Positions 52,990 to 57,367 of a DNA stretch of 64,000 nt are shown one piece after another (position 1 is the stretch's first letter; every line of letters begins with the position of its first letter). A model generated the notes under the pieces. It was not told the DNA's origin and searched no databases. It saw nothing but the letters and a program-made list of their open reading frames with translations. The position numbers and the translations under genes were made by a program. This DNA comes from Candidatus Moraniibacteriota bacterium (GTDB lineage: Bacteria; Patescibacteriota; Minisyncoccia; Moranbacterales; UBA2206): NCBI GenBank assembly GCA_030645735.1, contig JAUSNP010000003.1:167411-231410 (forward strand), given 5' to 3'.

Positions 52990-53493
52990 TTAGATATTTA
53001 ATATTTCTTCTAATTTTTTGTCGATGTCTTCGGTGGCTTTCTTTTCTTCTACTGCAGTCACTACTTCTTCCTTAACTTCTTCTTTCTTTTCAGCAACTGG
53101 AGCCACTTTGGCAGCTACAACAGGCGCTTTTTCTTCTTTTGGTTTTCTCTCTGGTTTTGCAGAAGCAGCAGCAATTCTTTCTTCCTTAGTTTTTAGTTCT
53201 GGAAGTTCGTCAGCGCGACTCACAACTGAGCGCAAGATGTTGGTGCAAAGATTCAATTTGCGTGTGATTGCTTGAAGTTTTTCAGTTTCTTCAATGTTGA
53301 ATCGACGAGCCACATAAACTCCGTGAGTTTCATGTTTGATTTGGTAGGCCAACTTTCGCTTTTCAGCTACTTCTTTTTCCTCGAAAACTCCACCTTCAGA
53401 GGTGACAATTTCCTCAGCTTCCTTCTTGATTGCTTCCAGTTCAGTCTCTTTTGAGGCTGCAACTAGATAGAACAGTTCGTACTTCATAAGCAT
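52990..53493 (-). CDS. rpsF: 30S ribosomal protein S6 with acidic/Lys-rich C-terminal extension
   Basis: MKYELFYLVAASKETELEAIKKEAEEIV...HGVYVARRFN...; classic rpsF-ssb-rpsR gene order. Confidence 0.85.
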   Translation of the reverse strand: MLMKYELFYLVAASKETELEAIKKEAEEIVTSEGGVFEEKEVAEKRKLAYQIKHETHGVYVARRFNIEETEKLQAITRKLNLCTNILRSVVSRADELPELKTKEERIAAASAKPERKPKEEKAPVVAAKVAPVAEKKEEVKEEVVTAVEEKKATEDIDKKLEEILNI

Positions 53494-53833
53494 ACTCGCG
53501 AATTGAGAGCGAATTGTCAGCTAATGAAAGCTAATATTATTCGTTCCAATTTGCTTTGAATTAGTTAATAATTAGTGAGTTAAAAACACAAAATCCCCCA
53601 GAAAAGCCAAAATCCTGACGGAATGTTGACCTTCTTATCCCTGAATGCTCAGGGCGAGAAGCTCGTTGGACTTTCTAAGTTGTTTATAGTGTACTGGAAC
53701 TCTGGGCTTAGGTCAATATTGACAAAATATCAAATAAGTGTATAATATGGAGTTAGTTCTTTTCAGGCAAATCTGGGGCTTTGGCATTGGGTCAGAGTGA
53801 GGGATAAGCCAAATAAAAGGAGTAGGTGGTGTT

Positions 53834-54457
53834 ATGGCTAAGAATAAAAATGTTTCGTTGTTAGTCAGCGCAGCGGGCTGGATTGCTGGATTGGTAGAAT
53901 TTCTCGTCAGAGCCTTGCGTGAGCGAGGAGTCACAGATGATGAGATTCATGCCCTCGTCACGGAAAAAGGCGAAGCATTGATGGCCAAGATTGCTGATGT
54001 AATCGCTGAGTTTGTGAAGGCGACGAAAAAAATCGTCTACACAATCACCGTGGATTATGCGACAAGTGTGGATGAGCTGGTAAAACTTGGAAAGTATGAT
54101 TGGGCAAATGATAATATTACCCAAAAAAACTTTCCAACTACGCGCACTGGCAAGGCGGATATTGAGATTGAACTCATCCACTTTGACCGTAGCATTTCCA
54201 GTGAGAAGGCACTTGAGGAAATGGACAGGATGGGTTATCGAGCAGCTGAAGTTCACGAGTTGTTGGCTTTCGGTGTAAAATACCCAGATGTCCAGCGTGA
54301 ATTTCCGGTCGTGGCTCTAGGCTCGGTTTGGCAGGACCCCGATGGCCTTCGCGATGTTGCGTGTCTCCGTCGCGATGCTTCGGATCGCTTCCTCAGCCTC
54401 CGTGCTTTCGGCCGTGACTGGACTGGCGCCTGCCGTTTCGCGGCCGTTCGCAAGTAG
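53834..54457 (+). CDS. DGR target protein (variable repeat at C-terminus; GSVWQ motif reminiscent of C-type-lectin/FGE-fold DGR targets)
   Basis: The 3' ~135 bp are homologous to the template repeat at 54801-54934, with substitutions only at template adenines. Higher GC than the surroundings. Confidence 0.75.
   Translation: MAKNKNVSLLVSAAGWIAGLVEFLVRALRERGVTDDEIHALVTEKGEALMAKIADVIAEFVKATKKIVYTITVDYATSVDELVKLGKYDWANDNITQKNFPTTRTGKADIEIELIHFDRSISSEKALEEMDRMGYRAAEVHELLAFGVKYPDVQREFPVVALGSVWQDPDGLRDVACLRRDASDRFLSLRAFGRDWTGACRFAAVRK
54318..54451 (+). repeat. DGR variable repeat (VR)
   Basis: Aligns to TR over ~134 bp. About 23 mismatches, all at positions where TR has A. The 3' 20 bp GC-rich block tgccgtttcgcggccgttcg is identical (IMH-like). 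Confidence 0.85.
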
Positions 54458-54483
54458 TCTGCCGATAGGCGGACAGCCCCTTG

Positions 54484-54530
54484 GGACCTTGGATTTCTTA
54501 TAACTTTTGAAATCCTTGGTCCCTTTTTGT
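54484..54530 (+). other. 15-bp-stem hairpin immediately downstream of VR (gggaccttggatttc-ttataactttt-gaaatccttggtccc) + T-run
   Basis: Two central mismatches. DGR-associated hairpin/cruciform position, also terminator-like. Confidence 0.6.
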
Positions 54531-54800
54531 TTTTTTCAAAAATTTTTAATTTTTGAAAAAGGTGATAAAATTAAAAAAGATAGTAGACTCAAAATAAGTT
54601 TTTGGTTAAGACTGAAAACGGTCAAATTCTGGAATTATTAAATAGAGAATAGTGCTGGGTATGCTTAGTGCTAGAGTTGTTTTATAGTTTCTAAAAAATA
54701 AAGATACTTGGTGCAAGATATTATGGAATTAAAAGATTCCGGATTAGATTCAATCTCAAAAGAATTTTAGAGATGGTGGTGCGGGAGATATTTTGCACAA

Positions 54801-54934
54801 TAGGCTCGGTTTGGCAGAACCCCGATGACAATCGCAATGTTGCGTATCTCAATCGCAATGATTCGAATCGCAACCTCAACCTCAATGATTTCGACAATGA
54901 CTGGAATGACACCTGCCGTTTCGCGGCCGTTCGA
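54801..54934 (+). repeat. DGR template repeat (TR), adenine-rich AAY codons
   Basis: taggctcggtttggcagaaccccgatgacaatcgcaatgttgcgtatctcaatcgcaatgattcgaatcgcaacctcaacctcaatgatttcgacaatgactggaatgacacctgccgtttcgcggccgttcg. Confidence 0.85.
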
Positions 54935-54970
54935 AACTCTCTTTATTTCCCGCCTCTTTTTTGGCGGGTT

Positions 54971-55267
54971 TTATTTTATTAATTGTTTTTGCCAGCCACC
55001 AAGCATTTTGCCGATTTCTTCTAGATGTTCAGAAAGAATAAGATATTTTTTGTTGTCTATCGATTTGATTTCCCAAGACATTTGAAGAAAAAATTTGAGA
55101 AGATCTAGTTTGGCATTGGCTTTTTGAACAAATGGAACTTTCTGTTCTTTGTTTAGTCGACTGGCTATGAAAATGTATTCAGTTGTTTCAATGAATAGGT
55201 TATCAATTTTTATTCCTAATGTGTAACGAGATGTTTTTGAAAAATGTGGCAAAAAATCATGCCACAA
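54971..55267 (-). CDS. avd: Avd-like accessory variability determinant (four-helix-bundle / 23S rRNA IVS protein family)
   Basis: ...KLDLLKFFLQMSWEIKSIDNKKYLILSEHLEEIGKMLGGWQKQLIK matches the C-terminal pattern of the four-helix-bundle family commonly encoded with DGR reverse transcriptases. Confidence 0.7.
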   Translation of the reverse strand: MWHDFLPHFSKTSRYTLGIKIDNLFIETTEYIFIASRLNKEQKVPFVQKANAKLDLLKFFLQMSWEIKSIDNKKYLILSEHLEEIGKMLGGWQKQLIK

Positions 55268-55350
55268 CTTGTATGTCGTAAGTAATTTTTGAATTAAAGA
55301 TATATTTGTCCGGGGGGGGGGGTCTTAAAAGTAGAAGAATTATTGAAATT

Positions 55351-56331
55351 ATGAAGATTCAACTGACTCATACATTTGCAGATATTATTTGTTTAGAAAA
55401 CTTGTTAGAAGCTTGGAAAGAATTTGTCAGAGGCAAAAGAAATAAAAAAGATGTCCAAGAATTTTCTTTGCATCTGATGGACAACATCTTTGCGCTTCAC
55501 CACGACTTAGTTAATCATACCTACAAACACGGTGGTTATCAAGCTTTCAAAATAAATGACCCCAAACCCAGAGACATTCACAAAGCCACGGTAGGTGACC
55601 GACTTTTGCATCATGCAATTTATCGAAAACTCTATCCATTTTTTGACAAGACTTTCATTGCTGATTCATATTCCTGCCGGATCAACAAAGGCACGCACAA
55701 GGCTATCAAAAAATTTAAAGCTTATTCTTTAATAGTAAGTAAAAACAACACCACAACTTGCTGGATTCTCAAATGCGACATCCGCAAATTCTTTGCCAAC
55801 ATTGACCACACAATTCTGATCAAAATTCTAGCTGAATATATTCCAGACAAAAACATTCTCGAACTGCTGGAAAATATTATTGAAAGCTTTGCAACTAAGC
55901 CTAATGTTGGCCTGCCACTTGGCAATCTCACTAGTCAATTGCTAGTTAATATTTATATGAACAAGTTTGATCAATTTGTGAAACATCAAATGAAAGCCAA
56001 ATACTATATCCGCTATGCTGATGACTTTGTGTTTTTAGCAGAAAGTAAAAGTGAACTAGAAGAAAAACTTTCAATTGTTGAAAAATTCTTAGCTACTAAG
56101 CTGAAACTAGAGATGCACCCAGACAAAGTTTTTATCAAAACGCTGGCAAGTGGTGTGGATTTTTTAGGTTGGGTAAATTTCTCAGATCATCGAGTCTTGC
56201 GAACAGCGACTAAAAAGAGAATGATGCGAAGAATTGAAGAAAATTCAAAAGAGGAGGTGATAAATTCGTATTTGGGTATGCTAAGACACGGGAATGGGAG
56301 AAAATTAATAACGAAGATTTCTAGATTTTGA
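55351..56331 (+). CDS. DGR reverse transcriptase (ORF-track start 55306 is inside a G10 tract; start set at MKIQL)
   Basis: RT motifs incl. RYADDFVFL (YADD box) and GLPLGNLTSQLLVNIYMN (LGxxxSQ, the DGR-type variant of the QGxxxSP motif of group II/retron RTs). Confidence 0.8.
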   Translation: MKIQLTHTFADIICLENLLEAWKEFVRGKRNKKDVQEFSLHLMDNIFALHHDLVNHTYKHGGYQAFKINDPKPRDIHKATVGDRLLHHAIYRKLYPFFDKTFIADSYSCRINKGTHKAIKKFKAYSLIVSKNNTTTCWILKCDIRKFFANIDHTILIKILAEYIPDKNILELLENIIESFATKPNVGLPLGNLTSQLLVNIYMNKFDQFVKHQMKAKYYIRYADDFVFLAESKSELEEKLSIVEKFLATKLKLEMHPDKVFIKTLASGVDFLGWVNFSDHRVLRTATKKRMMRRIEENSKEEVINSYLGMLRHGNGRKLITKISRF

Positions 56332-57367
56332 ATTCTACTACATCTCCATCTTGCATAATATAATCCTTGCCTTCAGTGCGCAGAGTGCCGAGTTCACGGG
56401 CTTTGCTCCAGCTTCCGGCTTCGAGAAGCTTGTCCCATTGAATGATTTCGGCGCGAATGAATTTGTCTTTGAAATCATTGTGAATGGCGGTGCCAGCCAT
56501 GGGCGCGGACCAACCCTTTTGAATGGTCCAAGCGCGAGTTTCTTCCACGCCGGTGGTCAAATAGGTGATGAGTCCCAGCAGGGAATAGGCGGTCACAATC
56601 AGTTCATCAATGTTGGAAGTGACGCCAAGTTCTTGCGCCTCTTCTTTAGTCATCTCAATCAATTCTTCCTCAATCTTGATGTCCAGTTTCACGTGGTTTC
56701 TTTTTTCCAAATTGTCAGACAATTTTTGGTTGATGTCGGCCACATTGTAGATATACAAGAATGGCTTCATGGTCAACAATGACATTTCTCGCACAATGAT
56801 TTTGGTGCTTTCATCTTCCATGTTCAGTTCAGTTTCATTGGCTAGTTTGCCCGCTTCCAAATTGGCATTGATTTTGTTGAGGATTTCCAATTGTTCAGCG
56901 GCGCCTTTTTTGTTGCCCCGCACATCTTTTTCTAAACGGATTTTGGTTTTTTGCACAGTTTCTAGATCAGCCAAAATGAGTTCTGTGTTGATGATTTCAA
57001 TGTCACTTTCTGGATCAATTTTGTTGTTGACATGAATGATTTGCGAATTGTCGAAAACCCGCACCACTTGGGCGATGGCATCCACTTCACGAATGTTGGC
57101 CAAGAATTTGTTGCCCAAACCTTCGCCCTCAGAAGCCCCTTTGACGATGCCAGCAATGTCCACAAATTCCACAATAGCTGGAATGATCTTCTTGGTTTGG
57201 CTCATAGCTGACAATTTGTCCAAACGCTCATCCGGCACTTTCACAATGCCAATGTTGGGTTCAATGGTGCAAAAGGGATAGTTGTTGATATCTACTTGAG
57301 TGCGGGTCAAAGCCTTGAAAAGGGTTGATTTTCCAACGTTTGGGAGGCCGACGATTCCAATTTTCAT
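56321..57367 (-). CDS. ychF: Redox-regulated ATPase YchF
   Basis: [21 protein letters not shown]... G-domain with a TGS C-terminal domain. Confidence 0.92.

Follow-up and report, generated by a model that had tools for sequence, protein, structure and literature searches.

A mononucleotide run divides avd and a conserved structured RNA precedes the template repeat at a diversity-generating retroelement locus of Candidatus Moranbacteria

The window analyzed here is a stretch of 64,000 nucleotides from contig JAUSNP010000003.1 (assembly GCA_030645735.1, positions 167,411 to 231,410 of the forward strand), which belongs to a metagenome-assembled genome (MAG) of Candidatus Moranbacteria, a member of the candidate phyla radiation (CPR, Patescibacteria). 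Between positions 53834 and 56331 it holds a locus that, judged from its sequence, is a genuine diversity-generating retroelement (DGR) of the type common in Patescibacteria. According to the window coordinates, its parts lie in the order target gene (plus strand), template repeat (TR, plus strand), avd (minus strand), and reverse transcriptase (RT, plus strand), and the variable repeat (VR) forms the 3′ end of the target gene. An earlier note on this DNA had described a DGR in a CPR bacterium, made up of a target with the VR at its 3′ end, an A-rich TR, an Avd gene, and a DGR-type RT, and this core was borne out. The term "complete" used there needs qualification, as avd in the assembled sequence is divided by a run of 11 C residues (C11) and lacks a canonical start codon in frame. 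As a whole, the locus is very probably a chromosomal Patescibacteria (CPR) DGR residing in the Candidatus Moranbacteria genome. The DGR itself is one more member of a well-populated lineage with thousands of members; its interest lies in the repeat that splits avd across the lineage, the structured RNA located 5′ of the TR, and the array of CTTGG motifs that follows the VR.

The VR occupies the last 46 codons of the target gene (54318-54453, plus strand; codons 162-207), and it aligns without gaps to the TR (54801-54936, plus strand) at an offset of 483. The two repeats had been paired over 134 bp in the earlier note; the pairing is real, but its length is 136 bp, with the ends at 54453 and 54936. 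The alignment contains 24 mismatches (13 A>G, 8 A>C, and 3 A>T), all of which fall on adenines of the TR, in agreement with the approximately 23 adenine-only differences counted before. The TR has 36 adenines, 24 of them altered in the VR and 12 retained, and its 100 C, G, and T positions all agree between the copies; the hypergeometric probability of such an adenine-only distribution is 4e-18. Three further mismatches, again only at adenines, occur at 54314-54317, and the TR may therefore begin at 54797, directly after helix P1 of the structured RNA described below. Codon positions 1 and 2 account for 34 of the 36 adenines, and the richness of the TR in AAY codons, pointed out earlier, corresponds to 12 such codons. 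The GC-rich 3′ end common to both copies, likewise recognized before, comprises 22 bases (54429-54450, CCTGCCGTTTCGCGGCCGTTCG), and the homology stops after 54453. By analogy with the initiation of mutagenic homing (IMH) element of the Bordetella phage BPP-1 (PMC5758913, PMC3240598), this block is regarded as IMH-like and would serve the same function. The GC content of the VR is 65%, compared with 41% for the window. A blastn search with the TR found no second VR within the 64 kb. An open reading frame (ORF) of 69 aa (54773-54982) crosses the TR in the frame that matches the VR, and no gene is supported there.

Related loci were collected by scanning species-representative genomes with the target alignment, which yielded 80 loci, and in 27 of them it was possible to place all four parts (target, TR, Avd, and RT). 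All 27 have the target on the plus strand, the TR on the plus strand 230-400 nt past the target stop codon, avd on the minus strand, and the RT on the plus strand, and the TR-VR mismatches in these loci fall almost exclusively at adenines. Such a layout corresponds to architecture B3, TR-(avd)-RT, which holds 90% of the CPR DGRs in Wu et al. 2018 (PMC5758913). As the layout is that of B3 and is general among the relatives, the reversed avd is normal in this lineage, and its description as atypical in the earlier note is contradicted. In approximately 45 of the 80 genome loci, a target homolog is present without an RT or a TR within 6 kb (e.g., L004, L006, L008, L011, L014, L018, L021, L028, L069, and L076), and several of these RT-less loci hold tandem paralogs. 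Such homologs may represent remote DGR targets or non-diversified relatives.

The target gene (53834-54457, plus strand) encodes a protein of 207 aa, in which a helical N-terminal region (residues 1-65) is followed by a C-type-lectin-fold domain that spans residues 68-207 and contains the VR. This fold had been anticipated for the C-terminal domain, and it was found. The protein had also been presented as small and unannotated, but it is not an orphan: over 400 patescibacterial proteins of about 205 aa make up its family. In alignment A2 of this family, the VR is hypervariable inside an invariant frame, GSVW..G.R.V..L...G..R.L.L.W...W....RFAAVRK. Pfam and NCBIfam gave no match to the target at E<=1, the search of PDB sequences returned only compositional matches to designed PPR proteins, and the sequence signatures of the known variable-protein classes (FGE-sulfatase, DUF1566, etc.) were not found in it. 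The best 19-residue window of the N-terminal part (near residues 6-25) reaches a Kyte-Doolittle hydrophobicity of 1.99; a value of 1.6 is reached by only 24 of 69 family members, and the case for an N-terminal membrane anchor is equivocal. A promoter-like site (53719-53746, plus strand; TTGACA-16-TATAAT) is located 88 nt upstream of the ATG at 53834 and agrees with the sigma-70 consensus at 12 of 12 positions; on this match it is the predicted promoter of the target.

Two elements that are missing after the TR follow the VR. The first is a 7-bp GC-rich hairpin with a GATA loop of the GRNA type (54457-54474, plus strand), located 4 nt after the VR. It fits the published description of the DGR target hairpin, in which a GC-rich stem of 7-10 bp with a GRNA loop lies 4-34 bp after the VR (PMC3240598). 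The second is an array of CTTGG motifs (54480, 54488, and 54515) set in an interrupted hairpin with a T run (54478-54537, plus strand; fold z -6.9). The 15-bp-stem hairpin reported earlier after the VR is real, but its stem has 13 bp with a 2x2 internal mismatch (54483-54523) and precedes the T run. The TT/TT mismatch arises because CCTTGG occurs in the same orientation in both arms. The hairpin together with the T run is probably the terminator of the target gene. Among 29 loci, the 80 nt past the target stop codon show a 19-fold enrichment of CTTGG, with a spacing of 8 or 16 nt. Since the motifs do not occur after the TR, they could mark the recipient copy, and this role is offered as a lead.

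The approximately 100 nt preceding the TR are conserved across the lineage and contain a structured RNA (54706-54803, plus strand) directly 5′ of the TR. The element is built of three covarying helices, P1 (54713-54722/54787-54796), P2 (54726-54729/54736-54739), and P3 (54753-54762/54765-54774). P1 closes directly against the TR start, and at its 5′ end the structure shares positions with a conserved AAAAATAAAGATACT block (54694-54708). The three helices were obtained with RNAalifold from 23 loci, and compensatory changes are present in 18 of the 22 pairs. Paired cells amount to 95%, versus 35-52% in slid controls, cells with double changes number 82 versus 5-18, and none of 500 shuffles reached the observed values. 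The covariance model R1, built from the sequences of these 23 loci, gives one match in the window, at 54706-54803, with 95 bits and an E-value of 2e-20. The same model matches 64 metagenome-derived loci, none of them in the training set and each with one match; 63 of the 64 matches lie on the RT strand, and they usually end about 500-650 nt before the RT gene. A search of positions 53000-57000 against Rfam 15 at E<=1 gave no match, including to the RT-1 to RT-19 motifs and thus to RT-10.

The other end of the template transcript is also recognizable. A terminator-like GC hairpin followed by a T run (54949-54977, plus strand) follows the TR at a distance of 12 nt. Nearly every related locus has, in the same place, a TCTCTTTATTT-like spacer followed by a hairpin and a T run, and the stem sequences differ from locus to locus. 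This hairpin is probably the 3′ end of the TR RNA. It appears that a self-contained RNA, about 270-290 nt long (54706 to about 54977), includes the TR, which would account for the ability of avd to lie on the opposite strand.

The RT gene (55351-56331, plus strand) encodes a protein of 326 aa that matches the RVT_1 profile (E 4e-27). The assignment to the DGR type by YADD and LGxxxSQ was upheld, as LPLGNLTSQ and YADD are read directly in the protein and the closest relative among solved structures is bRT. This relative, 8ub7_A, scores 136 bits, and one segment of this chain shows 100% identity to the Bordetella phage BPP-1 brt. Homologs of the RT at E<=1e-60 number 7976 proteins. The RT is placed in the DGR clade from its motifs and its closeness to bRT rather than from a phylogeny.

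The Avd-like gene on the minus strand, as it was called in the earlier note, does contain an Avd domain, but the domain is separated from its ATG by the C11 run. The avd body (54971-55311, minus strand) carries the complete Avd domain and has no interruption between the C run and its stop codon (54971-54973). The run itself (55312-55322) reads G11 on the plus strand and C11 in the avd sense, and it is the sole G/C run of at least 7 nt in the 64 kb. The 5′ segment of avd (55294-55371, minus strand) starts with the ATG at 55371, antisense to RT codon His7, which opens the peptide MSQLNLHNFNNSSTFKTPPPGQIYL followed by a stop codon, in a frame shifted by one base relative to the avd body. The run lies 17 codons after this ATG, and a length of 12 or 9 would join the two pieces in frame; MSQLNLHNFNNSSTFKTPPPR is the stretch of Avd peptide expected if translation proceeds from the ATG at 55371 across the run. 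The avd body matches Pfam bAvd with 51.4-51.8 bits (gathering score 40); the minus-strand ORF at 54971-55267 likewise exceeds the gathering score of bAvd, and its match to the NCBIfam Avd model stays under the cut-off of that model. The joined pieces match the NCBIfam model DivGenRetAVD at positions 2-104 of 104, beginning 4 residues after the run, and tblastn alignments of Avd to the relatives also begin at the run. The PDB sequence search with Avd found nothing. Because the run splits the gene, the full domain lacks an in-frame canonical start codon in the assembled sequence. The first ATG, GTG, or TTG in the frame of the body is the TTG at 55267, and its use would cost approximately 13 profile positions, i.e., half of helix 1.

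A repeat at this site is a feature of the lineage, and its existence, position, and recurrence are facts of the sequences. The genome loci were combined with 80 metagenome loci found with the RT alignment, and 97 avd/RT junctions were parsed. A G/C run of 7-14 nt, mostly 9-10 nt, is present in 77 of these junctions; one locus (L001) carries an interrupted run, CCCACCACCCC. Five loci hold other repeats at the same site, namely (CA)12, (CA)9, (CT)11, (CT)n, and (GCCA)9 (L098, L110, L129, L144, and L139), with avd in frame in some of them and out of frame in others. Across 1.2 Mb, the related loci contain 87 runs of at least 8 nt. At least 71 lie at the avd/RT junction, at least 7 others come within 10 nt of contig ends, and the remainder are mostly located at the same junction in loci dropped by the parser. 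Where the Tyr codon of YKxW in Avd helix 1 is reliably placed, its distance from the run is usually 35-42 nt, with outliers to 54 nt. Most loci have the run 3-47 nt away from the RT ATG, the extremes being -13 and 107 nt. The sub-lineage L163-L165 (RT P0180, 65 contigs) is devoid of the homopolymer and has a 190-nt avd-RT spacer (2311-2500) with long palindromes.

The reading frames on the two sides of the repeat were compared in these loci. Of the 77 run-bearing loci, 21 have the upstream ATG and Avd in one frame and 56 do not, and shifts in both directions are seen. In the repeat-free loci, the ATG is in frame in 11 of 11 cases, where chance would give 1 in 3, and in the five genome-derived ones it lies 27 codons before the Tyr of YKxW. 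These loci have no prolines at the position of the run, and the CCC codons are therefore not conserved for the protein. In most loci no ATG, GTG, or TTG occurs between the run and helix 1. A direct length polymorphism at the run was seen once, in three contigs from three samples with an identical RT, L166 (G11), L167 (G10), and L168 (G12), which show 0 mismatches over 2.1-2.4 kb and differ in run length only. Of these, only G12 is in frame, and the run lies approximately 20-30 nt upstream of the RT start. Two interpretations of the repeat were set aside. A sequence-specific role of poly-G, as an RNA or DNA element or as a Shine-Dalgarno-like signal, does not agree with the variable distance to the RT ATG or with unrelated repeats at the same site; the occurrence of unrelated repeats at one site argues instead for the selection of slippage itself. 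Obligatory recoding, read from the genome-derived loci, of which 1 in 24 is in frame, was not upheld by the metagenome-derived set (20 of 53 in frame).

The activity of related elements can be followed in populations sampled more than once. In an in-frame population (Ca. Giovannonibacteria CP066687 with Logan contigs), 19 and 2 differences separate the samples, all of them in the VR (L169 versus L170-L172, 1516-1606) and all but one at TR-adenine positions (18 of the 19 between L169 and L170). In an out-of-frame population, P0221 (eight contigs, all G10), 6 and 19 VR differences were found between samples (L178 versus L179 and L183, 1061-1150), almost all at TR-adenine positions (19 of 20). 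The VR differences at adenine sites in these two populations show recent DGR activity. In another out-of-frame population (G9), the VR is identical in four contigs. Compared by frame state and VR diversity, the four populations comprise one in-frame active, one out-of-frame active, one out-of-frame static, and one mixed. For the out-of-frame populations, the possibilities are an in-frame minority of cells, slippage of RNA polymerase or the ribosome, or an Avd start elsewhere.

Such observations can be joined into one reading, in which a selected hypermutable repeat (C7-14, (CA)n, (CT)n, or (GCCA)n) located after the avd start gates mutagenesis, and the uncatalogued three-helix RNA serves as a cis-acting part of the template. 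We give this joint reading an even chance of being right. Several observations weigh against the explanation of the locus as a whole, slippage at the repeat included. The in-frame shares of the genome-derived and metagenome-derived loci differ (1 of 24 and 20 of 53), and the overall in-frame fraction, 27%, equals the value expected from random frames, so the upstream ATG could be irrelevant in the repeat-bearing loci. The adenine-site VR differences in P0221 mean that an out-of-frame consensus does not equal an inactive DGR. The run length is constant in the consensus of three of the four multi-sample sets. The host organism is present in one sample only (SRR13727526), and ongoing VR diversification is seen in relatives rather than in its own copy. 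The DivGenRetAVD score of Avd, 70.3 bits, is under the equivalog cut-off of 80. The GRNA-loop hairpin after the VR, tested as a lineage feature, was found in 0 of 28 relatives, which makes its role here uncertain. On account of the 27% in frame, the difference between the two sets, and the activity out of frame, the production of Avd through slippage at the repeat is held to be evenly balanced between true and false.

Among the alternatives, the one that survives best regards the repeat as no frame switch at all. Avd would start downstream, at a non-canonical codon or by reinitiation, and the run would belong to the 5′ leader or to the divergent avd/RT promoter region, its length at most tuning transcription. 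The near-random frames relative to the upstream ATG agree with such a view, and so do the VR still diversifying in an out-of-frame population, the location of the entire Avd profile downstream of the run, and the closeness of the run to the RT ATG in most loci. It has to be set against the lack of ATG, GTG, or TTG between the run and helix 1 in most loci, the in-frame upstream ATG in every repeat-free locus, and the absence of prolines there, which indicates that the CCC codons are not kept for the protein. We consider this explanation possible but rather doubtful.

In another alternative, the DGR is decaying, with avd a frameshifted pseudogene and the VR/TR differences a record of past activity only. 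In the assembled sequence avd is indeed out of frame, and the host comes from a single sample. Nevertheless, the avd body is open and matched by the whole Avd profile, and the RT, TR, RNA element, and target are intact. The Avd sequence is conserved in 56 related loci that are out of frame, with which independent decay does not fit, and the VR is still changing in one out-of-frame population. Decay is thus an unlikely explanation. The G11 run as a sequencing or assembly artefact, with avd actually intact, is very improbable. Homopolymers are error-prone, and the Logan assembly of SRR13727526 breaks at the run, with one contig showing G11 (L081, 3693-3703) and the other ending in G13 (L082, 2934-2946). 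On the other hand, G11 is common to the NCBI MAG and one of these contigs, 77 loci, the output of many independent projects and assemblers, have runs of 7-14 nt at this site, and di- and tetranucleotide repeats take the place of the run in other lineages. The origin of the RT from a group II intron, a retron, or a defence system, with the repeat pair as a coincidence, can be dismissed: the top NCBIfam model for the RT is a group II RT/maturase, but at 154, far under its cut-off of 300, and database names of its relatives read "retron-type", whereas bRT scores 136 bits against approximately 75 bits for group II and retron-type RTs, LGNLTSQ is present, an Avd gene adjoins, the probability of the adenine-only mismatches is that given above, and neither intron RNA domains nor Rfam matches were found at the locus.

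The DGR is flanked by housekeeping genes, with rpsF and ssb upstream and ychF and a phosphomannomutase gene downstream, and the element is therefore regarded as chromosomal. The 3′ ends of the RT gene and the convergent ychF overlap by 11 nt (56321-56331). Among the relatives, the neighborhoods of the cassette differ widely and include secE-nusG, a Mur ligase gene, and a transposase gene, which suggests cassette mobility.

If the locus follows the paradigm of BPP-1, its parts could act in the following order. The TR would be transcribed into an RNA that begins with the covarying three-helix domain and finishes with the terminator-like hairpin. A complex of RT and Avd would copy this RNA into cDNA, misincorporating nucleotides opposite adenines. 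The cDNA would then replace the VR, the invariant GC-rich block (54429-54450) setting the 3′ boundary of the exchange, and the elements specific to the VR side, i.e., the GRNA-loop hairpin and the CTTGG array, would mark the recipient copy. As a result, the ligand face of the lectin fold could be recoded through up to 36 adenines placed at codon positions 1 and 2. Less securely, the production of Avd may hang on slippage at C11, between the ATG and the Avd domain. The synthesis of full-length Avd would then need either a change of run length at the DNA level or slippage of RNA polymerase or the ribosome, and the repeat may thereby throttle mutagenesis or gate it stochastically.

The repeat could matter for the question of how DGR activity is regulated. 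A repeat-dependent Avd, if true, would be a contingency switch or a throttle on a targeted hypermutation machine, and it would provide a simple mechanism by which the mutator stays mostly silent while rare cells diversify a surface-recognition protein. Such a mostly silent mutator would suit episymbionts, which need to match their hosts. The parts are also compact, which makes them attractive for reconstitution and for the engineering of targeted mutagenesis: a template RNA of approximately 270-290 nt with its 5′ domain and terminator, an RT of 326 aa, an Avd of approximately 130 aa, and a lectin-fold scaffold of 140 aa.

Several known systems can be compared with this locus, and the closest are the DGRs of the CPR. 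Roux et al. 2021 describe DGR clade 2 as restricted to the CPR and cellular, with targets devoid of recognizable domains (PMC8144416). The locus studied here has the gene order of the B3/clade 2 elements, the reversed avd, a cellular chromosome, and a CPR host, and no differences in architecture were found. Its target is likewise small and without a recognizable Pfam or transmembrane domain, and its RT has relatives in the thousands. The repeat in the 5′ part of avd, the RNA upstream of the TR, and the CTTGG array found no mention in the searchable literature, which did not include Paul et al. 2017, so an earlier description is possible.

The DGR of BPP-1 (mtd-avd-TR-brt) shares with the locus the adenine-specific differences, an RT with [I/L]GxxxSQ and YxDD, Avd, a GC-rich IMH-like block at the 3′ end, a GC hairpin (7 bp, GRNA tetraloop) located 4 nt past the VR, and a variable protein of the C-type-lectin fold. 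The target falls in this respect among the C-type-lectin-fold variable proteins of DGRs (Mtd, TvpA, AvpA, and TaqVP), whose fold carries the VR. The differences concern the arrangement and the RNA. In the Moranbacteria locus avd is positioned between TR and RT on the other strand and is split by a homopolymer, the TR has a terminator-like end of its own, and the target is a cellular protein of 207 aa and not a phage tail fibre. The conserved RNA is located 5′ of the TR and not in the 3′ spacer, and Rfam RT-10 gives no match. RT-10 is one of the RT-associated RNA motifs RT-1 to RT-19, and it lies 3′ of the BPP-1 TR (Weinberg et al. 2017, PMC5737381). The element described here resembles these motifs as a structured RNA beside a DGR template, presumably serving the RT, but it shows no match to them in Rfam 15 at E<=1 and lies on the upstream side of the TR, with about 550 nt between it and the RT gene.

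The repeat in avd finds its nearest counterpart in the contingency loci of Neisseria, Haemophilus, Campylobacter, and Mycoplasma (PMC3315296, bioRxiv 10.64898/2026.04.01.715767). In both cases, the repeat, be it a G/C run (7-14 nt) or one with units of two or four nucleotides, is placed just past the start codon, and in-frame and out-of-frame states occur; in one relative of the DGR, repeat lengths also differ between otherwise identical sequences. The two differ in that the putatively switched gene of the DGR is the accessory factor of a targeted mutator rather than a surface or restriction-modification gene, and in that an out-of-frame population keeps its DGR activity.

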